Of a stretch of DNA of 64,000 nucleotides, positions 7,876-56,510 are shown piece after piece; position 1 is the first letter of the stretch; each line of letters opens with the position of its first letter. Under the pieces are notes generated by a model that ran no database searches, was not told the origin of the DNA, and was given only the letters and a program-made list of their open reading frames with translations. Position numbers and translations under genes: made by a program. The DNA comes from an uncultured Candidatus Bathyarchaeia archaeon (GTDB taxonomy: Archaea; Thermoproteota; Bathyarchaeia; Bathyarchaeales; Bathyarchaeaceae). The stretch spans positions 33,035-97,034 of the forward strand of contig CAZKWF010000001.1 in assembly GCA_964556565.1 (NCBI GenBank), in the 5' to 3' direction.

Positions 7876-7915
7876 GCAACCACCCCCCTAGGTAGGGGGG
7901 TCTAGAAAGAGAAAG
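7876..7915 (+). promoter_or_regulatory. Promoter/leader module copy, palindromic subtype (CCCCCCTAGGTAGGGGGG + TCTAGAAAGAGAAAG)
   Basis: Matches the reverse complement of 23499-23540 at 43 of 44 positions. It ends 101 nt before ATG 8017. Confidence 0.55.
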
Positions 7916-20242: not shown

Positions 20243-20276
20243 AAAAAAATATAGGGGGGGTCTATAAGAGAGAGAC
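20243..20276 (+). promoter_or_regulatory. Promoter/leader module copy (AAAAAAATATA, G7, TCTATAAGAGAGAGAC)
   Basis: Same architecture as the copies at 5055, 36173, 36229 and 56481. Followed by a G-poor leader, GCAAACAACCAAGCAAAAAACACACACAG... Confidence 0.6.
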
Positions 20277-20466
20277 TAGTGCAAACAACCAAGCAAAAAA
20301 CACACACAGAAAACACATCTATTCTCAACAAGTCAGCTTCTCACAAACCACCACAAAAACAAGAAAAATAACGTAAAGTTTTTATGCAAACACACCATGA
20401 ATACATCTCTCTCACTTCTCCCGAGAAAATCTCTTGGGGAAATAGATTATCTAGGAGGAACAACAA

Positions 20467-21111
20467 ACGCATCAAAACCCAGATCACCCAACACTAAAAG
20501 GAACAACAACAATAGGAGTAATCTGCAAAGACGGAGTCATCCTAGCCTCAGACACCCGCGTAACAATGGGATACTTCGTAGCCCACAAAAAAGGAAAAAA
20601 AGTATACAAAATCGACAACCACCTAGCAATGACCATCTCAGGAAGCGTCGCCGATGCACAACGAACAGTAGACATCCTCAAAGCAAACGCACAACTATAC
20701 AAACTAAACACCAAACGCCCAATACCAGTAAACTCAGCAGCCAGACTCATCGCAAACCTTCTGTTCTCAGCCCGCCTAGCCCCACTGATAGCTCAAGTTC
20801 TCGTCGGAGGCATCGATGACACAGGACCACACATATTTTCGTTAGATCCCTTCGGCAGCCTCACCGAAGAAAAATGCGTCGCCACCGGTTCAGGCTCGCC
20901 CATAGCCTACGGAGTACTGGAAGACAAATACAAAGAAAATATGATAATCAAGGATCTCCTATCTGTAGTCGTGCGCGCCGTTGACTCAGCTATGAAAAGA
21001 GACGCTGCAAGTGGAGATAACTTTGACGTAGCAATCATAGACAAGAAAGGATTTCACGAATTAAACGATGAAGAAAAAGGAAACATTCTAGGAGGCTCTG
21101 AGGAGCGATAA
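20467..21111 (+). CDS. psmB: Proteasome subunit beta; 5' end unresolved
   Basis: The frame encodes ...HPTLKG/TTTIGVICKDGVILASDTRVT, with the catalytic Thr1 codon at 20503-20505, upstream of the track ATG (20566). No ATG, GTG or TTG lies between the TAG at 20452 and Thr1. AGGAGG (20453-20458) sits 8 nt before ACG 20467. Confidence 0.8.
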   Translation, partial: THQNPDHPTLKGTTTIGVICKDGVILASDTRVTMGYFVAHKKGKKVYKIDNHLAMTISGSVADAQRTVDILKANAQLYKLNTKRPIPVNSAARLIANLLFSARLAPLIAQVLVGGIDDTGPHIFSLDPFGSLTEEKCVATGSGSPIAYGVLEDKYKENMIIKDLLSVVVRAVDSAMKRDAASGDNFDVAIIDKKGFHELNDEEKGNILGGSEER

Positions 21112-21117
21112 AACAGC

Positions 21118-23034
21118 GTGACAGCACTCGACAAAACAAAAGTAGAAATCAGTCAATCAATACTAGAACGTGTTCCTAAAGAGGCAGAAATCACACGAAT
21201 AGAATTCGAAGGTCCAGCTCTAGCCGTTTATACAAAAAAGCCAGAAGTTCTCATCGAGCAAAGTTACGTAATCGCAGACATCGTCAACCTGATCAGAAAA
21301 CGAATCGTTGTACGTTCTGACCCCTCGGTAAGACTGCCTGAGAAGGACACAGAAAAAATCATACAGAAAGTAGTTCCTCCAGAAGCACAAATTTCAGGAA
21401 TGAGTTTTGATCCCAGCCTAGGCGAGGTTATCATCGAAGCCGAAAAACCCGGCTTGGTCATTGGAAAAAACGGGGTTATCCTACAAGAGATCATAAAACA
21501 GTCACGATGGAGGCCCCGCGTTCTAAGGAGCCCTCCAATACCATCTAAAATCATGGCCCACATGCGACATTATCTCCACACTGAAAGCAAGGAACGAGAA
21601 AGAATACTCCGTACAGTGGGCGAAAGGATTTTCAGACCAACAGTTTACGGAGTCGGAGACATCCGAATCTCTGCGTTAGGTGGCTTTCAACAGGTGGGAA
21701 GGTCTGCCATCCTTGTACAAACAAGAGAAAGTCAAGTCCTACTGGATTGTGGCATAAACCCGGGCTCCTCGAATTCGCTCTTAATTTTCCCAAGACTCGA
21801 TGCACCTCAGTTTGATTTAGACACGTTAGACGCTGTTGTAATAAGTCATTCACATCTAGATCACTGCGGCTTCCTTCCATTTCTTTTTAAATATGGGTAT
21901 GATGGTCCGGTTTATTGTTCAGCCCCCACGTCAAATCTGATGACTTTGCTTCAATTAGATTATCTTGACGTAGCGAGTAAACAAGGGGTGATGCCGCCAT
22001 ACGATCAAAGAGATGTGCGGTCAACCGTGTTACACACCATCCCCCTGCGATACGGCGCCGTGACTGACATAGCCCCAGATGTTCGTTTAACCCTTCATAA
22101 CGCTGGACACATTTTGGGTTCATCGATCGTTCATTTGCATGTTGGAGAAGGTTTGCATAACATCGTCTACACTGGCGATTATAAATACGGGAAAACGATG
22201 CTTCTTGAACCTGCGGTCGCAGAGTTTCCCAGAGTAGAGACCATAATAACTGAAAGCACGTATGGAGCTCCGCAAGATGTAATGCCATCTAGAGTTGAAG
22301 TTGAAGAAAAACTTACGGCGGTCATAAATGGCACTTTAGATAGGAGAGGCAAAGTTTTAATCCCAGTTCCAGCTGTCGGCAGAGCTCAGGAGATTATGCT
22401 GGTCATTGATGGGTATATGCGCCGAGGACTGATGAGGGAAACGCCCGTGTTTATTGAGGGTATGATTTCTGAGGCTACTGCTATTCACACAGCTTATCCA
22501 GAGTATTTAGAAAGGGAAGTGCGAAACAGCATTTTGCATGAGGGAGTTAATCCGTTTCAATCGGATTATTTCACGATTGTGGAGCACCCCAGTGCCCGAG
22601 AAGAAATTGTGGATGGAGATCAATGTATTATCATAGCAACTTCTGGCATGCTTGAGGGTGGGCCGGTGATAGATTACTTTAAGCGTTTGGCATCAGATGA
22701 ACGCAATACGATAATTTTTGTGAGTTATCAAATTGAGGGGACACGAGGGAGTAGGGTGCAAAAGGGTTTGGCAGAAACGCCTATAATAAATAGTGAGGGA
22801 AAAATTGAAGTTATAAAATCGAATATGAAGGCTGAAACTATTAATGGGTTTTCTGGGCATTCTGATAGGAGGCAGATTATTAATTATATTCGCCGAGTTA
22901 TGCCGAAACCTGAGAGAATAATTGTGTGTCATGGTGAGAGCGCAAAATGTTTGGGTTTAGCGAACTTTTTGCGGAGAAGGTATAATGTTGAAACGTTAGT
23001 GCCAGAGGTTTTGGAGACTGTTAAGCTGCGGTAG
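21118..23034 (+). CDS. aCPSF1/FttA-type beta-CASP ribonuclease (2x KH + metallo-beta-lactamase + beta-CASP)
   Basis: 638 aa with a GTG start. N-terminal KH repeats, HSHLDHCG motif and a beta-CASP C-terminal region. Confidence 0.9.
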   Translation: MTALDKTKVEISQSILERVPKEAEITRIEFEGPALAVYTKKPEVLIEQSYVIADIVNLIRKRIVVRSDPSVRLPEKDTEKIIQKVVPPEAQISGMSFDPSLGEVIIEAEKPGLVIGKNGVILQEIIKQSRWRPRVLRSPPIPSKIMAHMRHYLHTESKERERILRTVGERIFRPTVYGVGDIRISALGGFQQVGRSAILVQTRESQVLLDCGINPGSSNSLLIFPRLDAPQFDLDTLDAVVISHSHLDHCGFLPFLFKYGYDGPVYCSAPTSNLMTLLQLDYLDVASKQGVMPPYDQRDVRSTVLHTIPLRYGAVTDIAPDVRLTLHNAGHILGSSIVHLHVGEGLHNIVYTGDYKYGKTMLLEPAVAEFPRVETIITESTYGAPQDVMPSRVEVEEKLTAVINGTLDRRGKVLIPVPAVGRAQEIMLVIDGYMRRGLMRETPVFIEGMISEATAIHTAYPEYLEREVRNSILHEGVNPFQSDYFTIVEHPSAREEIVDGDQCIIIATSGMLEGGPVIDYFKRLASDERNTIIFVSYQIEGTRGSRVQKGLAETPIINSEGKIEVIKSNMKAETINGFSGHSDRRQIINYIRRVMPKPERIIVCHGESAKCLGLANFLRRRYNVETLVPEVLETVKLR

Positions 23035-23401
23035 GTGTTTCCTCTCCAGAGATAGTAGTTTTTTCTCGCCATATTCGAACGAAGGAGGGCGTGATGACGA
23101 CGCGTTCTTCGCCTAGTCGGGCTATGTCTCCTCCTACTGATTCGGTGAATTTGCATAGTTCGTTTACTGCGTGTTTGATGTCTTCGATGCTTTTTTTTGC
23201 GAGTGGGCTGACTCTTAGGATGAGGATGTTTCCTGATTTGACTTCGCGTTTGATTGTGTCTATGTCGTTGAGGTTGCGCAAAGGTAGAGCTCTTAGGTAA
23301 ACTTTGGCGGGGAGATTGGTGGAAGGAGTTTGTTCGGTTAGTTTTTCGGTTCTTTTGATTCTGTCGACGAATCTGTCTATTGCTTTTCCAAAACTTGACA
23401 A
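23021..23401 (-). CDS. sepF: SepF-like cell-division protein (DUF552)
   Basis: 126 aa with a TTG start after GAGGAG. Core LRNLNDIDTIKREVKSGNILILRVSPLAKKSIEDIKHAVNEL...GGDIARLGEERVVITP. Its 3' end overlaps the aCPSF1 gene's by 14 bp, convergently. Confidence 0.75.
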   Translation of the reverse strand: MSSFGKAIDRFVDRIKRTEKLTEQTPSTNLPAKVYLRALPLRNLNDIDTIKREVKSGNILILRVSPLAKKSIEDIKHAVNELCKFTESVGGDIARLGEERVVITPSFVRIWREKTTISGEETPTAA

Positions 23402-23498
23402 GTCTATCTCCTCATGTAGTTTGGTTGTGGCTTGAAGTTTAAATTTTTCCTTTTTTTGGTGCTTAAATATGTGCGTGTGTTTGTTTCGTTATTTGCAT

Positions 23499-23540
23499 AT
23501 CTCTCTCTTTCTAGACCCCCCTACCTAGGGGGGTGGTTGC
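23499..23540 (-). promoter_or_regulatory. Promoter/leader module copy, palindromic subtype
   Basis: atctctctctttctagacccccctacctaggggggtggttgc. The CT-tract lies 99 nt from the sepF start. Confidence 0.55.
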
Positions 23541-23704: not shown

Positions 23705-24160
23705 TTAGGCTTGTTGTTCTCCGAAAATGAACTCGCAGTGTTCGTCTCCTTTTCCAGCGCATTTTTCTTCGGTTACGATTATTGTTTTCTTCAAGAGTTC
23801 TGAGAGAAAACCTGCTATGAAGCCTCTGAAGAAGTGGCAACTTGGCTGATTTGTTTTACGAGTCATTGCCTCAAACGAGTCGTCTATTATGATTCGTCCG
23901 GACCCGTTTTTGAAGTCAACTTTTTGGAAAGACATTTTTCCCCAGTTCTCTTTCTTTTTTAACGAGGAGAGATAGTTGAGTGCCTCTTCTTTTTTGTTAA
24001 ATTCTTTTTTCTTTTTTTGGTGTAAATGTACGCCGCATTTTATTGCTGCTGTATATAGTATCACTGAAGCTGCAGAAGGAGAGAAAATCAGTTCTAGAGC
24101 ATTTTCCATTTGGCCGAACGTTTCGAACTGAAATGTGAAGCTTCCTTCTCTTGCTTTCAA
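23705..24160 (-). CDS. V4R-domain protein
   Basis: 151 aa. C-terminal CHFFRGFIAGFLSELL...EEKCAGKGDEHCEF is typical of V4R domains. Confidence 0.7.
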   Translation of the reverse strand: MKAREGSFTFQFETFGQMENALELIFSPSAASVILYTAAIKCGVHLHQKKKKEFNKKEEALNYLSSLKKKENWGKMSFQKVDFKNGSGRIIIDDSFEAMTRKTNQPSCHFFRGFIAGFLSELLKKTIIVTEEKCAGKGDEHCEFIFGEQQA

Positions 24161-32935: not shown

Positions 32936-33901
32936 TTACCGGTGTCTTTTGAATCCTTTCAGCCTCTCTTCAAGTAATGTATCTGCAGCTGAATATGGAT
33001 CTGTTTTCTTTGCAAAAATTTTCTCAACGAGTTTTTCTAATTCGCCCTTGCGCTTCAGCTCGTCTATGATAGAATCAGTTGTCTTTTGCTTGATTGCTTC
33101 GACCAGTTCTGTTTCAGCTTTTTGTCTGCGCTGTGTGTCAAAGCCTTCTTTTTTCAGATATTTCATGTGCTGGTTTATGTGGTTGAGAAGCTCTGTGGTT
33201 CCTTCGCCTTTCGCGGCTGTTGTCTTGATGACTGGTGGCTTCCATTTTTCCTTCTCTGAACTCATATTCAACATTGTTTCTATGTCAATCACAGCCTCAT
33301 CTGCGTTCTCGCGGTCAGCCTTGTTCACTACGAAAATGTCTCCTATTTCCATCATGCCTGCTTTGATGGCTTGTATGTCATCGCCTAATCCTGGAGCCAG
33401 CACAACAACTACGGTGTGAGCGACTTTTATGATGTCAACTTCGGATTGTCCGGCTCCAACGGTTTCAACTATGACCGCGTCTTTGCCCGAAGCGTCTAAC
33501 ACTTTAACTGCGTCTTTTGTAGCCCTCGCTAGTCCGCCAGGACTGTTTCTTGTTGCCATGCTTCGGATGAAAACTTCTTCGTCTGTGCTGAGTTTCTGCA
33601 TGCGTATGCGGTCTCCGAGGAATGCGCCTCCTGTGAAGGGGCTGCTTGGGTCTACGGCTATTATGCCTACGCGTTTTCGTTTTTTTCGTAGTTCTTCGAC
33701 TAGTCTTTTTATTAATGTGCTTTTTCCTGAGCCTGTGGGTCCGGTTATGCCTATTATGTGTGCTTTGCCTGTGTGTGGGTAGAGTTTGGATACGGCTTTT
33801 TGGGCTTCTGTTGGGTTGTTTTCGATGAGGGTGATGGTTTTGGCTATGGATCTTTGGTTGCCTTTGAGTACGCCGTTGACGAGTTGTTTGGTTTGGTTCA
33901 A
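32936..33901 (-). CDS. meaB: MeaB/ArgK-type G-protein chaperone of methylmalonyl-CoA mutase
   Basis: 321 aa. GITGPTGSGKSTL, ETVGAGQSE and VVNKADR motifs. Confidence 0.9.
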   Translation of the reverse strand: MNQTKQLVNGVLKGNQRSIAKTITLIENNPTEAQKAVSKLYPHTGKAHIIGITGPTGSGKSTLIKRLVEELRKKRKRVGIIAVDPSSPFTGGAFLGDRIRMQKLSTDEEVFIRSMATRNSPGGLARATKDAVKVLDASGKDAVIVETVGAGQSEVDIIKVAHTVVVVLAPGLGDDIQAIKAGMMEIGDIFVVNKADRENADEAVIDIETMLNMSSEKEKWKPPVIKTTAAKGEGTTELLNHINQHMKYLKKEGFDTQRRQKAETELVEAIKQKTTDSIIDELKRKGELEKLVEKIFAKKTDPYSAADTLLEERLKGFKRHR

Positions 33902-36172: not shown

Positions 36173-36210
36173 CTCTCTCTTTTATAGACCCCCCTATAGC
36201 CCCCCCTAAT
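36173..36210 (-). promoter_or_regulatory. Promoter/leader module copy (proximal of a tandem pair)
   Basis: ctctctcttttatagacccccctatagccccccctaat. The CT-tract lies 97 nt from the mutase ATG (36075). Confidence 0.6.
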
Positions 36211-36228
36211 TCTTTGTAGCTCCTTATG

Positions 36229-36260
36229 TCTCTCTCTAGACCCCCTACCTAATTTTTTTT
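36229..36260 (-). promoter_or_regulatory. Promoter/leader module copy (distal of the tandem pair)
   Basis: tctctctctagaccccctacctaatttttttt. Confidence 0.5.
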
Positions 36261-36360: not shown

Positions 36361-36936
36361 GCCAGGTTGCTGGAGTGAATGTCGTAAGTAAGGTGCAGTT
36401 GTATGTAGACCTTTTTAATTACCCAGCCTGTGGAGAGGAAGCCGCTGAGATGATACTTAGGGTTCTAGAGAAGGAGTGGGCCATCCAAGAAAGCTAGAGG
36501 CAATTCAAAATTTTCGCTTGAGTTTAAATAGTTTCGCTATTAACGAAAACGCTACCATATGAAATGCACACGTTTCCTTTTGTCTTAGATTTTCTTCTTA
36601 ACGAAACTGTAAGGCAATCCGACAGAAGATGCACTATCGCTATCGGATATTTTTCTCGGGAAATACGTACGCATGAACGACAGATCAGGGTATAAAACAT
36701 GGAGAAACTCGTATGTCTTGTAGAGAGGAAAAGTTGGCCTGACCAAGCCTAGAGTCTGCCATGGGCATGGAGAGATTATTGCGCTATTCTATTTGGAGCA
36801 TATTTGGCGAGGTATGTTGAAAACAACCGCTTTTTAATGGAGATGTGCTTCGCATGCTTGCTTTTCGTGTGGGTTTGGTTTTCGAAAATGATTTAAGGTT
36901 TGCTGCGTATGTTTGTTTGAGTCTGGTGATTTAGAA

Positions 36937-37179
36937 ATGGAGCCTGTTGTTGCTATGCTTTCAAGGTATGAGGAAAATGCGAAATGGCTTAGTAGTCACT
37001 ATGAGGAGTTGAAGAAGAGGTTTAAGGACGAGTGGATTGGGGTTCTGAACGAAACTGTTGTTGATCATGACCGCGAGTTGGGTAGGCTTGTTAAAAGGTT
37101 GCGTAAGAAGTATTCAGAGGCTTACAATGAGATTGCAGTGGAGTACGTCACTGCTAAAGAGATAGAGCTGATACTCTGA
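36937..37179 (+). CDS. DUF5678-like small protein (antitoxin-like partner)
   Basis: 80 aa from ATG 36937 (track TTG 36913). Pattern ...YEELKKRFKDEWIGVLNETVVDHDRELGRLVKRLRKKY. Confidence 0.55.
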   Translation: MEPVVAMLSRYEENAKWLSSHYEELKKRFKDEWIGVLNETVVDHDRELGRLVKRLRKKYSEAYNEIAVEYVTAKEIELIL

Positions 37180-37192
37180 AAAAGGGGATTTT

Positions 37193-37636
37193 TTGAGGAT
37201 TCCCTGCTTTTTTAAGCCTGGAATTTTTGAAGCGGCTTATGTTGTTGCCGTCTTAGAATCTAATGCTCTGGGTATGTGTGAGACAATTGAGTTTTTGGTT
37301 GATACTGGGGCTTCGAGGACAACGATCTGCGATAAGGATGCGATTAGATTAGGCATAGATTTTGGCAAGTTGGAGAAGCTTGGCGAGGGCATGCTTGGAA
37401 TAGGCGGAGTGGTTGACACCTATGTTTTGAAGGATGTTAAACTCGTTTTCCGCAGGGAAGACGAGAAAGGTCATGTGCAAAATTTTGAAAGAATTTACGT
37501 TTTGAAGCATGCTGCCTTAGACGAGAGAATTATGAGGATTCCAAGCATTCTCGGAAGAGACATACTAAACAAGTACGCGCTTATTTACGATAAAAGACAT
37601 GAAAAGGCATACATAACGGATGAAACGCTTACCTAA
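37193..37636 (+). CDS. Retropepsin-like (clan AA) aspartic protease
   Basis: 147 aa. Catalytic FLVDTGASRTTI (D-T-G-A) and C-terminal ILGRDIL. Starts 13 nt after the upstream gene. Confidence 0.7.
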   Translation: MRIPCFFKPGIFEAAYVVAVLESNALGMCETIEFLVDTGASRTTICDKDAIRLGIDFGKLEKLGEGMLGIGGVVDTYVLKDVKLVFRREDEKGHVQNFERIYVLKHAALDERIMRIPSILGRDILNKYALIYDKRHEKAYITDETLT

Positions 37637-54193: not shown

Positions 54194-54340
54194 GAATTGA
54201 AACCAGCTTATGATTTACAAAAGTAATACTATTTATATTTCTCCGCCCCGCGAATCGAATTTTTAAGAAATAAACATTTCTCGCATGCGTGCATTTTCAA
54301 AGGTTGAGAAAGGCGGAAGAAAGCAATGTAGTTGTTATCT

Positions 54341-54471: not shown

Positions 54472-56046
54472 TCACTCTGACCTGACATAGACCACGTTTC
54501 CGCCTACAATGGTCATCTCCACTTTAACGTCTCTAATTTCATTAGGCGGGATTTCATGTGGTTCACGAGACAAAACTACGAGGTCCGCCAGTTTACCAAC
54601 ATCAATCAACCCCTTAATATCCTCTTCAAAAGATGCATACGCCGCGTTAACCGTGTAGAGACGTAGAGCATCATCCACACTGATTCGTTCCTCAGGAAAG
54701 GCTTCTCTCGCCACAGCCGCCCAAACGCCTAATAAAGGATCAATAGGCTCAACTGGACAATCTGACCCGCCAGTCGTCAACACACCCTCTTGAACCAGTG
54801 TTCTGAAAGGATAAACCCATCTAGCTCTGGTAGAACCTACACGATTTGCCACCCAGAAATCAGAAACAACAAAATGCGGCTGTACAGATGCTATCACCTT
54901 CAACTTCTTCATATGTTGAATCAGCCTCTCGTTAAGAACAGACGCGTGCTCTATACGGTGACGATGATTCTCCTTCGGCGCTTCCTTTAACGCGTTTTCC
55001 AGTACGGTCAACACCATGTCTATAGCCCGATCACCGATAGCATGTATGGCCAACTGAAAGCCAGCTCTATGTGCCTCCATAACAAGCGTATTCAGCTTCT
55101 CTTGAGTGTACAGCATCATTCCTTTCCTTGTAGGCTCATCTTGATACGGCTGAAATAAAGCTGCAGTACGCGCACCTAGAGAACCGTCTGAAAAGATTTT
55201 CACACTTCCAATTCGTACCCTGTTGTCTCCGAAGCCTGTGTGCATGCCTAAATCGATCAGATGGTCCAAAAGCTTCACTGAAACTATGACATACACTCTT
55301 AGAAGCAGTTTATTCTGTTCACGAAGCTTCTGGATAACGCGTATCTCGGTTGGTGAGCTGATCAGCCAGTGGACGCTGGTCAGTCCCGCTTCTACGGCTT
55401 TCTGGCACGCTAGACTGCACGCTTCTGTGAGTTCTTCCTCGCTGGGCTCCGGCTTCACCTCCCAAACTAGATTCATTGCATTTTCACGTAAGATGCCCGT
55501 CGGTTCGCCTGTTTTCGGATCTTTATCGATCTGTCCAGCGGGTGGAAGCGTGGCTTCTCTTGTAATGTTTGCTAGTTCTAATGCTTGGCTGTTTGCAACG
55601 CAGACGTGTCCGCATACGCGTGTAAGAATTACTGGGTTGTTCGGTGAAAACTTGTCCAAGTCCCATCGAGTAGGGTATCGTCTCTCTGTGAGGCGGTCTT
55701 GGTCCCATCCGCGGCCTAAAATCCATTGTCCTTTGCCTGTCTTTTGTATACGTTTTTTTAGTTTTTTCTGCATTTCTTTGATGGAGTTGACTCCTCTAAG
55801 GTTGATTTGTTTTAGTGATTTTCCGTATCCTGTGACGTGTGCGTGAGTGTCTATGAAGCCGGGAACAACGGTTTTTCCTTTAAGGCTTATTATCTTCGTG
55901 TTTTTTCCAATCCATGGTTTGATTTCTTTGTTTGTGCCCACTTCAATGATTCTGTCATCTTTGACGGCTATGGCTTGAGCGTGGGGCTTAGAAGGGTTCA
56001 TGGTCAAAACGTTTCCGTTGGTTAAAACCAAGTCTGCCCACATCAT
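54472..56046 (-). CDS. Amidohydrolase-3 (YtcJ-like) metal-dependent hydrolase
   Basis: 524 aa. PGFIDTHAHV (HxH), HAIGDRA and a GSDCPVEP tail. Confidence 0.85.
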   Translation of the reverse strand: MMWADLVLTNGNVLTMNPSKPHAQAIAVKDDRIIEVGTNKEIKPWIGKNTKIISLKGKTVVPGFIDTHAHVTGYGKSLKQINLRGVNSIKEMQKKLKKRIQKTGKGQWILGRGWDQDRLTERRYPTRWDLDKFSPNNPVILTRVCGHVCVANSQALELANITREATLPPAGQIDKDPKTGEPTGILRENAMNLVWEVKPEPSEEELTEACSLACQKAVEAGLTSVHWLISSPTEIRVIQKLREQNKLLLRVYVIVSVKLLDHLIDLGMHTGFGDNRVRIGSVKIFSDGSLGARTAALFQPYQDEPTRKGMMLYTQEKLNTLVMEAHRAGFQLAIHAIGDRAIDMVLTVLENALKEAPKENHRHRIEHASVLNERLIQHMKKLKVIASVQPHFVVSDFWVANRVGSTRARWVYPFRTLVQEGVLTTGGSDCPVEPIDPLLGVWAAVAREAFPEERISVDDALRLYTVNAAYASFEEDIKGLIDVGKLADLVVLSREPHEIPPNEIRDVKVEMTIVGGNVVYVRSE

Positions 56047-56198: not shown

Positions 56199-56384
56199 TC
56201 AGCGTCGTCTTCTTCGTCTTCGCTTGAGCGGATTTTGGCCTGGGGTGCGTTGTAGGACTACTCGTTTTTCGTAATTGCGTCGGCATCGTACCCTTGGCAT
56301 TCGTGTTTTTCTCGGCGTGGTTGCGATCTTTGGGGTTTGTGACCGAACTTTTCCGGCTTTTGACAGTGATCCGTGTGTTGGCAT
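56199..56384 (-). CDS. rps30e: Ribosomal protein eS30
   Basis: 61 aa. MPTHGSLSKAGKVRSQTPKI matches the eS30 signature. Ends in an R7 run. Confidence 0.8.
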   Translation of the reverse strand: MPTHGSLSKAGKVRSQTPKIATTPRKTRMPRVRCRRNYEKRVVLQRTPGQNPLKRRRRRRR

Positions 56385-56480: not shown

Positions 56481-56510
56481 TATCTCTCTTTAGGCCCCCT
56501 ATAATTTTTT
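56481..56510 (-). promoter_or_regulatory. Promoter/leader module copy
   Basis: tatctctctttaggccccctataatttttt. The CT-tract lies 99 nt from the eS30 ATG. Followed directly by ATGCAT. Confidence 0.6.

Follow-up and report, generated by a model that had tools for sequence, protein, structure and literature searches.

Strand skew linked to a promoter-like cassette crosses into the 3' end of aCPSF1 in a Bathyarchaeia genome

In a Bathyarchaeia genome, a repeated promoter-like cassette is followed by about 1-1.5 kb of DNA whose cassette-sense strand is A+C-rich regardless of what is encoded there. The unusual G/T-ending, C-starved codons at the 3' end of the aCPSF1 gene are the part of the sepF cassette's zone that lies antisense to that gene. 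We analyzed a 64,000-nucleotide stretch of contig CAZKWF010000001.1 (hereafter, the window). Within it, aCPSF1 lies between two facing copies of the cassette (TATA-GGGGGG-YCTA-AGAGAGA plus an A/C-rich leader): one at 20250-20275(+) before psmB, and one at 23502-23533(-) before sepF. An earlier note had proposed that the asymmetry follows distance and direction from a module upstream of sepF, not the coding strand of the affected gene, and that its cause is linked to transcription. Every test we could run supports the first proposal; as for the second, run-on transcription from the cassette is inferred from sequence, and the skew may be driven either by mutation bias or by selection on nascent RNA.

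The skew itself is real. Base counts reported in the earlier note proved correct to within one base (23221-23280, A8 C9 G18 T25; 22981-23040, A14 C6 G19 T21; 22741-22800, G21 C7; 21661-21720, A13 C14 G16 T17). Plus-strand GC skew is +0.43 for 22600-22999 and about 0 for 21500-22100. The effect sits at third codon positions: the first 60 codons of aCPSF1 read A30 C15 G5 T10 and codons around 22738-22917 read A16 C1 G19 T24, whereas first and second positions change little and follow the third weakly. Change-point analysis placed the best single split at 21799, with G/T3 of 0.33 before and 0.61 after (logLR 24.1; the largest of 1000 permutations was 8.3). The best two splits, at 21670 and 22384, gave G/T3 of 0.30 (codons 1-184), 0.50, and 0.70 (codons 423-638). 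C3 drops from 0.216 to 0.028 at 22705 (permutation p<0.001), so that 22705-23034(+) is a C3-depleted core with C at only 3 of 109 third positions.

The earlier note placed the start of the zone at 22650 and gave its length within aCPSF1 as about 400 nt; this marks the C-depleted core, but the G/T-rich zone is longer, at about 650-720 nt, from 22312/22384 to 23034. The note also missed that the 5' third of the gene carries the mirror-image A/C-rich skew. The 3' ends of other genes do not look like this: among 1152 sliding 100-codon intervals in 57 ORFs, the five lowest C3 values and the top keto skew all come from this stretch, and only the 3' part of the amidohydrolase gene 54472-56046 comes close. 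An independent Logan assembly encoding the identical protein (L001) and a relative with 96% amino acid identity (L002) show the same gradient.

The psmB-side cassette (AAAAAAATATA-GGGGGGG-TCTA-TA-AGAGAGAGA) matches a consensus built from 112 metagenomic instances; skew is absent upstream of it and starts immediately downstream. It is followed by an A/C-rich leader at 20276-20466(+) (keto skew about -0.39) that contains the conserved GCAAACAAC and is noncoding: it has no credible ORF, and the overlapping 140-aa ORF at 20397-20819 has no Pfam hit. Next is psmB (20467-21111(+); proteasome beta, PF00227), whose putative start codon is ACG where relatives have ATG, as judged by reading-frame comparison with L002 and a further relative, L003. 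The aCPSF1/FttA gene (21118-23034(+)) encodes KH_TffA, metallo-beta-lactamase, Beta-Casp, and RMMBL domains (PF17214, PF16661/PF00753, PF10996, and PF07521) and has orthologues in 80 Bathyarchaeia loci. Its A/C-ending 5' zone (21118-21883(+)) continues the zone of the psmB cassette: k3 is -0.46 from the psmB start to 21883 and +0.15 after a T5 tract at 21884-21888. A compositionally balanced middle (21884-22311) separates this zone from the 3' zone (22312-23034(-)), where codons are G/T-ending on the coding strand and the sepF-sense strand is A/C-rich; k3 in the sense of sepF is -0.26 for 22312-22804 and -0.4 to -0.46 for 22704-23103.

On the other side, sepF (23021-23401(-); PF04472; A3.45, C3.40, G3.04, T3.11) is convergent with aCPSF1 and overlaps it by 14 nt, an overlap conserved in about 76 loci. 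Comparison of sepF upstream regions from 13 loci identified a conserved core motif, GGAAAAATTTAAAC, at 23438-23451(-) that is present in all lineages and is inferred to be the sepF promoter. The cassette is an additional, lineage-specific element upstream of it, consisting of an A/C-rich leader segment at 23452-23501(-) (..ATGCAAATAACGAAACAAACACAC..) and the element at 23502-23533(-), which includes the palindrome CCCCCCTAGGTAGGGGGG (23516-23533) and corresponds to the module of the earlier note. The L001 contig breaks inside this element, as expected at a repeat. An exact search for the palindrome in related loci gave no hits; a relaxed cassette pattern was needed.

From the sepF-side cassette, the skew starts sharply, is one-sided, and fades over about 1.2 kb across the sepF/aCPSF1 border. 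The cassette occurs at five loci in the window, each of which starts a one-sided A/C-rich zone that decays over 1-1.5 kb (2.6 kb for the methylmalonyl-CoA mutase operon) and crosses gene borders; one runs from rps30e into the first 250 codons of an amidohydrolase gene, although the short intergenic stretch between these two genes is not skewed. The noncoding leaders are as skewed as fourfold sites. We found no tRNA or known noncoding RNA that could explain the zones using ARAGORN or Rfam, the latter at gathering thresholds and at E<=1. Two ORFs antisense to the 3' end of aCPSF1, 22693-22932(-) and 22929-23156(-), have no Pfam hit and are the expected by-product of a stop-poor strand.

Across 75 Bathyarchaeia with the conserved psmB>aCPSF1<sepF arrangement, sepF skew covaries only with the 3' part of aCPSF1, and psmB skew only with the 5' part. 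By independent contrasts, sepF k3 against the last 240 codons of aCPSF1 gives r=-0.51 (p=3e-6), but r=-0.01 against the first 200 codons; psmB k3 against the first 200 codons gives r=+0.41 (p=3e-4). A lineage-wide codon polarization is thus rejected as a confounder, because psmB skew does not predict the aCPSF1 3' skew and the psmB and sepF skews are uncorrelated. Leader skew upstream of sepF also predicts the aCPSF1 3' skew (r=-0.32, p=0.005). The lineages that have a cassette upstream of sepF, namely those of the window and L002 and, on the other side of the tree root, of loci L048/L049, are also those with a G/T3-rich aCPSF1 3' end.

The pattern extends to 124 metagenomic cassette instances, in which mean skew jumps from -0.12 to -0.31 at the cassette and reaches 0 by about 2.1 kb. 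Per 300 nt, third positions read on the cassette-sense strand give -0.60, -0.47, -0.29, -0.18, and -0.07 in antisense genes, and -0.44, -0.45, -0.33, -0.28, and -0.21 in same-strand genes. Fourfold sites within 600 nt downstream read about A.47, C.30, G.10, T.12 (range, G.09-.12 and T.10-.15) and are nearly identical in the two classes; de-duplicated per-gene tests give p=4e-4 for antisense and p=5e-5 for same-strand genes. Gene calls in these loci were crude ORF calls; only 10 antisense genes were tested against Pfam, and 9 had hits, including rpS12, rpL30, rpS5, and PhoU. Ribosomal-protein genes away from a cassette have k3 near 0, whereas those facing one have k3 of +0.5 to +0.9 (S12, +0.89); A/C3 is therefore not simply the high-expression codon set of this clade.

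We tentatively favor the explanation that the skewed field marks the stretch traversed by RNA polymerases that start at the cassette. The psmB cassette's field covers psmB and about the first 255 codons of aCPSF1, while that of the sepF cassette covers sepF and continues antisense through about the last 240 codons of aCPSF1. The cassette resembles an archaeal promoter, with an A-rich BRE/TATA, a G-run, YCTA, and AGAGAGA, followed by a 70- to 200-nt leader, and 42 of 57 neighbors are same-strand genes starting about 154 nt downstream; however, about a quarter of cassettes point straight into the 3' end of an antisense gene, which is odd for an mRNA promoter. Read-through from sepF into aCPSF1 is inferred, without RNA evidence, because the sepF-sense strand has only two T5 tracts and no T6 or longer tract for 1.55 kb after the sepF stop. 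At the first T5 (22800-22804(-)) the skew steps from -0.64 to -0.26, and beyond the second (22307-22311(-)) it falls to +0.08; the first T6 on this strand comes only at 21465-21470. A T6 tract at 23059-23064(+), 25 nt after the aCPSF1 stop and inside sepF, is the likely aCPSF1 terminator and is followed by a T8 at 23191-23198; oligo-U tracts terminate archaeal transcription (PMC8716108, PMC8501993). The oligo-T boundaries are confounded, since T-runs cannot occur inside a T-depleted zone, and the rps30e field ends without any T5.

As the proximate cause, we tentatively propose a strand-asymmetric substitution bias coupled to this transcription: net G>A and T>C/A on the nontemplate strand, the signature expected if the template strand, rather than the nontemplate strand, suffers deamination-type damage or escapes repair. 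Such a mutational account needs a nonstandard mechanism, because its sign is opposite to that of the established transcription-associated asymmetry, in which ssDNA cytosine deamination produces G+T excess on the nontemplate strand (PMC10030826). Moreover, k3 values of -0.8 to -0.98 in some same-strand genes imply rate ratios above 20:1 if purely mutational; an added selective component is likely there. Substitutions polarized between the window and L002, with L003 as the outgroup, offered only about 10-20 informative sites per segment, too few to show direction.

A less likely but serious alternative keeps the same geometry, but the field is maintained by selection on the nascent RNA or DNA: G-poor RNA disfavors R-loops, U-poor RNA avoids oligo-U pausing and termination, and A/C-rich RNA is unstructured. 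Downstream of a very strong promoter, such selection would act on every synonymous or noncoding site regardless of coding strand, and would weaken as polymerase density falls. Field RNAs are predicted to be much less structured (-12 to -16 versus -19 to -23 kcal/mol per 100 nt), G is the most strongly avoided base, the extreme k3 values are easier to reach with selection, and selection does not have to explain the reversed sign. On the other hand, selection would have to override codon usage in highly expressed ribosomal-protein genes for the sake of an antisense RNA with no known function. Weak selection on thousands of individual synonymous sites is also hard to sustain in organisms that, like Bathyarchaeia, are probably slow-growing, and the shared composition of leaders and antisense fourfold sites is that expected for a neutral equilibrium.

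It is unlikely that the cassette instead acts as a terminator or pause site for polymerases arriving from the other side (aCPSF1 read-through across sepF, or ribosomal-protein operons ending at a cassette), with pausing and R-loops over the last kilobase exposing the coding strand of the incoming gene to classical C>T and A>G deamination. For antisense genes, this model has the correct sign (PMC10030826); the GC skew of +0.43 on the aCPSF1 coding strand would favor R-loops, the cassette read in reverse gives a U-rich tract plus a perfect hairpin, and in 15 of 57 instances the cassette lies about 70 nt after the stop codon of a facing gene. However, it cannot explain fields over same-strand units with no convergent gene to supply incoming transcription, such as rps30e-amidohydrolase, where all neighbors lie on the same strand, and the 2.6-kb mutase operon field. 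Three quarters of cassettes sit at promoter distance from a same-strand gene, and only 28 of 112 instances carry the hairpin.

Similarly unlikely is a DNA-level process unrelated to transcription, in which the cassette's G-run or hairpin is a site of strand-specific nicking with 5'>3' resection, or of polymerase stalling with helicase uncoupling, repeatedly leaving the cassette-antisense strand single-stranded for about 1 kb. The fourfold-site signature and its gradient with distance are those of the vertebrate mitochondrial L/H-strand asymmetry attributed to ssDNA deamination (PMC3269012), and the onset at a structured element is sharp and one-sided. Replication-based versions, however, need forks to approach every cassette from the same relative side, yet cassettes point both ways within 64 kb; no nickase or HUH gene was seen next to cassettes, albeit without a systematic search, and the position of cassettes at promoter distance from genes is left unexplained. 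A replication origin or terminus was rejected on skew geometry, without a search for origin genes or ORB boxes: the five zones are at most 2.6 kb long and of both polarities, and skew returns to about 0 between them.

Ordinary codon heterogeneity is very unlikely: A/C3-rich genes do include plausibly well-expressed ones (psmB, the mutase genes, and rps30e), and k3 of +0.36 to +0.40 occurs in four other genes, but the skew is shared by noncoding leaders, mirrored in antisense genes, and coupled across lineages specifically between sepF and the aCPSF1 3' part. A mosaic or chimeric origin, suggested by the large compositional change within a conserved gene of the kind where chimeras typically join, can be all but dismissed, since the ranking of relatives is the same in all four quarters of the protein, L001 encodes the identical protein across the junction, L002 shares the gradient, and the change is gradual, with two change points.

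Like transcription-associated strand asymmetry (PMC10030826), the field is oriented with an inferred transcription direction, is present in coding and noncoding DNA, is strongest near the start of the unit, and is independent of reading frame; it differs in its reversed sign, its far larger magnitude, its link to one specific cassette rather than to all expressed genes, and its overriding of codon usage in antisense ribosomal-protein genes. It shares with the mitochondrial asymmetry an A/C-rich strand opposite a G/T-rich one, G as the most depleted base, dominance of third positions in both coding orientations, and a positional gradient (PMC3269012), but here the zones are local 1- to 2-kb patches on a cellular chromosome that start at a promoter-like element, not a genome-wide consequence of strand-displacement replication. 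Closely spaced convergent eukaryotic genes probably show comparable terminal GC skew and R-loop zones (Ginno et al. 2013; PMC10030826); in our case, the skew continues unchanged through the convergent gene up to its cassette, and also occurs over 5' leaders and same-strand genes with the opposite sign relative to their own transcription, so it is not a property of gene 3' ends. Translational codon bias likewise produces strong third-position bias in some genes, but the bias seen here changes abruptly within genes. Literature searches on Bathyarchaeia codon or skew patterns, archaeal transcription-associated asymmetry, and Bathyarchaeia promoter motifs yielded nothing relevant.

It is possible, though less likely than not, that some Bathyarchaeia possess a transcription-coupled mutational process of reversed polarity, localized to the first 1-1.5 kb downstream of one family of very strong, duplicating promoter cassettes. 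It would be strong enough to drive fourfold sites to about 77% A+C on the sense strand and to force essential antisense genes (rpS12, rpL30, and the aCPSF1 3' end) into almost pure G/T-ending codon usage. That would be a natural, promoter-targeted local hypermutation field in an archaeon, comparable in geometry to somatic hypermutation zones but acting on the germ line of the lineage.

If the field is mutational, it is a transcription-linked asymmetry of the opposite sign to every described case and large enough to dominate codon usage, which would bear on how archaeal polymerases, repair systems, and R-loops treat the two strands. If it is selective, it shows that nascent-RNA composition downstream of strong promoters can be optimized at the expense of the codon usage of neighboring genes, even ribosomal-protein genes. 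Either way, codon-usage indices do not measure expression in these genomes, gene finders will call spurious ORFs on the stop-poor strand, and the cassette plus its skew zone gives a sequence-only marker of strong transcription units and of antisense read-through in an uncultured phylum. For aCPSF1 specifically, the result predicts abundant sepF-derived antisense RNA over the 3' end of the gene for the archaeal termination factor, a possible regulatory link between cell division and termination.

The psmB>aCPSF1<sepF locus studied here belongs to a Bathyarchaeia genome whose closest relative in GTDB genomes is MAG CSMAG_2176 (locus L002; 96% amino acid identity for aCPSF1). The local genes are psmB, encoding proteasome beta (to 21111, +); aCPSF1/FttA (21118-23034, +); sepF (23021-23401, −), which overlaps aCPSF1 by 14 nt at the 3′ ends; and a V4R-domain gene (23705-24160, −). 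The psmB>aCPSF1<sepF arrangement, including the 3′ overlap, is conserved in about 76 of 80 Bathyarchaeia loci fetched. psmB itself has no ATG, GTG, or TTG between the in-frame stop (20452-20454) and the catalytic Thr motif (GTTTIGV), in the region 20452-20475: the codon that is ATG in L002 and in a further relative, L003, is ACG here (20467-20469), representing either a noncanonical start, a very recent T>C change in the direction of the skew described below, or an error or pseudogene. ORF calling therefore starts the psmB ORF at 20566, downstream of the active-site threonine.

We found that the base counts in the earlier note, which reported a C-poor, G+T-rich plus strand at the aCPSF1 3′ end, were correct to within one base. 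Plus-strand GC skew is +0.43 over 22600-22999, against about 0 in the middle of the gene. The signal lies at third codon positions, which read A30 C15 G5 T10 in the first 60 codons and A16 C1 G19 T24 around 22738-22917. A change-point analysis rejected homogeneity (logLR of 24.1, against a maximum of 8.3 in 1000 permutations), giving three segments with G/T frequencies at third positions (G/T3) of 0.30 (codons 1-184), 0.50, and 0.70 (codons 423-638); C at third positions (C3) collapses from 0.216 to 0.028 at 22705. Among all 100-codon windows of 57 ORFs in the 64 kb, this stretch has the lowest C3 and the highest keto skew, and so is not how 3′ ends generally look. The gradient is also present in an independent assembly that encodes the identical protein (L001) and in L002, and relatives rank the same way in every quarter of the protein, excluding a chimera or a recombinant.

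The palindrome used as a landmark in the earlier note occurs twice in the window (0.01 expected by chance), with both copies in the same orientation relative to the downstream gene. A relaxed pattern found six copies at five loci: GNAT-FEN1 (7893-7912, +), psmB-aCPSF1 (20250-20275, +), sepF (23502-23533, −), the methylmalonyl-CoA mutase operon (two tandem copies within 36174-36247, −, at 36174-36198 and 36229-36247), and a small gene that we identified as rps30e (56199-56384, −), with its cassette at 56483-56503 (−). The latter gene encodes a 61-aa ribosomal protein S30e (PF04758; E = 1.8e-11) and lies in what looked like a 640-nt intergenic gap upstream of an amidohydrolase gene; it is too short to appear in ORF lists made at 100 aa. 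The consensus from 112 metagenomic instances is an A-rich stretch, then TATAGGGGG(G)YCTA, a few bases, AGAGAGA, then ..ACACAAA.., which looks like an archaeal BRE/TATA with an initiation region, although this is inferred from established promoter architecture rather than demonstrated. The cassette behaves like a duplicating element: contigs often break at it (L001 and the metagenomic locus L184), the double copy upstream of sepF in L002 is nearly identical to the double copy upstream of the mutase operon in the window, and 28 of 112 instances carry an extra C-run that makes a perfect hairpin. The five cassette-bearing units are exactly the strongly A3/C3-biased ones in the window, and each has a 70- to 200-nt noncoding leader that is as A/C-rich as the coding third positions.

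We oriented each cassette and measured third-position keto skew (G+T−A−C; k3) by distance. There is no skew upstream of the psmB, mutase, and rps30e cassettes, while downstream the skew is strong (−0.4 to −0.9) and decays to about 0 by 1.0 to 1.6 kb (2.6 kb for the mutase operon). The mutase-operon field drops abruptly inside the MeaB gene (32936-33901), within 33380-33780 (−), from a k3 of −0.94 (33580-33779) to −0.34 (33380-33579), with no T5 tract nearby. A small gene pair 0.7 to 1.4 kb behind (upstream of) the mutase cassette, encoding a DUF5678 protein and a retropepsin-like aspartyl protease (36913-37636, +), has a plus-strand GC skew of +0.37 to +0.47, as strong as the aCPSF1 3′ end; this may be foreign codon usage or the mild upstream skew seen in the metagenomic average (see below). 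The rps30e field continues into the first 250 codons of the next gene, the amidohydrolase (54472-56046, −), which shows an even larger intragenic flip than aCPSF1, its k3 running from −0.64 in codons 51-100 to +0.48 in codons 351-400. The A/C part is explained by the rps30e cassette field, but the 3′ 250 codons, which stand well above the window's baseline (+0.3 to +0.5), are not; a TATA-like sequence at about 54233-54240 could drive antisense transcription, but no cassette is there. Long ORFs without Pfam hits lie opposite to, or out of frame with, real genes inside skew zones (30-302, −; 20397-20819, +; 55223-55846, +; 22693-23156, −); because strongly skewed strands are poor in stop codons, gene finders are likely to overcall here.

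aCPSF1 lies between two facing cassettes 3.2 kb apart. Its 5′ part continues the psmB field (k3 is −0.46 from the psmB start to 21883), and its 3′ part continues the sepF field on the other strand (−0.64 to 22805, then −0.26 to 22312); the balanced middle (21884-22311) is where both have ended. This explains the asymmetry described in the earlier note, as well as the mirror skew at the 5′ end, on which the note did not comment.

Across 75 Bathyarchaeia, sepF third-position skew correlates with aCPSF1 bins 291-638 (r down to −0.48) but not with bins 1-232, while psmB skew correlates only with bins 59-174. With phylogenetically independent contrasts, albeit on a tree built from aCPSF1 itself, sepF skew is correlated with that of the last 240 codons (r = −0.51; p = 3e-6) but not the first 200 (r = −0.01), and psmB skew with that of the first 200 codons (r = +0.41; p = 3e-4) but not significantly with the last 240 (r = +0.14); psmB against sepF gave r = +0.04. 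Thus, the coupling is local and strand-wise, rather than a lineage-wide codon trend. All lineages share a core sepF promoter motif (GGAAAnnTTTAAA; here 23438-23451, −, and at equivalent positions in loci L002-L055), which lies about 40 nt upstream of the sepF start, is conserved across distant Bathyarchaeia, and is a candidate core BRE/TATA for sepF that predates the cassette. The cassette is an extra upstream element found in the window genome and L002; a diverged form occurs in L048/L049, two loci that lie across the root of the tree. These are the lineages with the most A/C-rich sepF leaders and the most G/T3-rich aCPSF1 3′ ends.

A metagenome scan for the cassette returned 120 loci (L082-L201) and 124 unique instances, which probably come from a limited set of related sediment Bathyarchaeia. 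Mean cassette-sense keto skew is −0.04 to −0.13 upstream, jumps to −0.31 in the first 100 nt, and declines to 0 at about 2.1 kb. Third positions read on the cassette-sense strand are −0.44, −0.45, −0.33, −0.28, and −0.21 per 300 nt in same-strand genes, and −0.60, −0.47, −0.29, −0.18, and −0.07 in antisense genes. At fourfold-degenerate sites within 600 nt, composition on the cassette-sense strand is A.44, C.29, G.12, T.15 in same-strand genes and A.50, C.30, G.09, T.10 in antisense genes, compared to a background of about.27/.22/.21/.28. Deduplicated per-gene medians of own-sense k3 for antisense genes are +0.38 (0-600 nt), +0.21 (600-1500 nt), +0.01 (far), and −0.04 (upstream); the tests give p = 4e-4 and 5e-3.

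Gene calls in the metagenomic loci are simple ORF calls with composition filters, and we first suspected that the antisense ORFs were artifacts; however, spot checks with Pfam show that nine of the ten tested are real. They encode ribosomal proteins S12 (own k3, +0.89), L30 (+0.66), and S5 (+0.48), PhoU (+0.75), DUF4152, an RNA methyltransferase, a beta-CASP protein, an epimerase, and DUF1028. In one metagenomic locus, L091, the ribosomal-protein operon runs L6 (−0.14), L32e (+0.05), L19e (+0.09), L18 (+0.12), S5 (+0.48), and L30 (+0.66) toward a facing cassette 66 nt beyond the L30 stop. A/C-ending codons are therefore not this clade's generic high-expression codons.

A link to transcription is inferred, in the absence of RNA data. 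Of 57 cassettes with a called right-hand neighbor, 42 have a same-strand gene starting a median of 154 nt downstream, and the other 15 face the stop codon of an antisense gene about 70 nt away. Archaeal termination depends on oligo-U tracts, assisted by aCPSF1 itself (PMC8716108, PMC8501993). After the sepF stop, the sepF-sense strand has only two T5 tracts (22800-22804 and 22307-22311) and no T6 until 21465-21470, while the aCPSF1-sense strand meets a T6 25 nt after its stop and then a T8. In the window, the field steps down at these T5 tracts, and at the T5 at 21884 for the plus-strand field. Averaged over the metagenomic instances, skew is −0.12 just before the first T5 or longer tract and −0.04 just after (distance-matched control, −0.13). 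This fits a field bounded by termination, but it is confounded because T-runs cannot arise inside a T-depleted zone; the rps30e field, moreover, ends without a T5.

We consider it likely that the cassette directs an orientation-independent field, most likely transcription linked. Codon selection is excluded as its driver for the antisense and noncoding parts, which leaves two classes of explanation. Our tentative preference, for the chain as a whole, is a transcription-coupled substitution bias. The signature (A/C-rich on one strand and G/T-rich on the other, with G the most depleted and a positional gradient) is that of the vertebrate mtDNA L/H strands, attributed to deamination of the strand left single stranded (PMC3269012); here, however, the strand that looks deaminated is the template strand, the opposite of the classical non-template-strand effect (PMC10030826). 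In favor of this reading, leaders, same-strand fourfold sites, and antisense fourfold sites have the same composition, the field is imposed on antisense ribosomal-protein genes, and positions 1 and 2 follow position 3 weakly. Less likely, in our view, is selection for G/U-poor nascent RNA downstream of very strong promoters: such RNA would be less prone to R-loops, have fewer oligo-U pauses, and be unstructured, and predicted folding energies are −12 to −16 versus −19 to −23 kcal/mol per 100 nt. The reversed sign and the extreme values (−0.8 to −0.98) reached in same-strand genes favor this alternative.

The remaining explanations fare worse. A flipped model, in which the cassette terminates incoming transcription, is improbable and fails for units with no convergent partner; a transcription-independent single-stranded DNA process at the cassette appears slightly less probable still. 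Ordinary codon heterogeneity is very unlikely, and mosaicism the least likely of all.

The phenomenon works like transcription-associated strand asymmetry and looks like the mtDNA strand gradient, but it has the reverse of the classical sign, is far stronger, and is tied to a specific duplicating cassette. We found nothing on it for Bathyarchaeia, or for archaea generally, in the literature searched. The field can override codon usage even in ribosomal-protein genes. In L091 (5171-8766, oriented) and L184/L171, cassettes point directly into the 3′ ends of the spc-like ribosomal-protein operon (..L18-S5-L30) and of the rpoA2-nusA-S12 cluster, which predicts abundant antisense RNA against ribosomal-protein mRNAs in these organisms.
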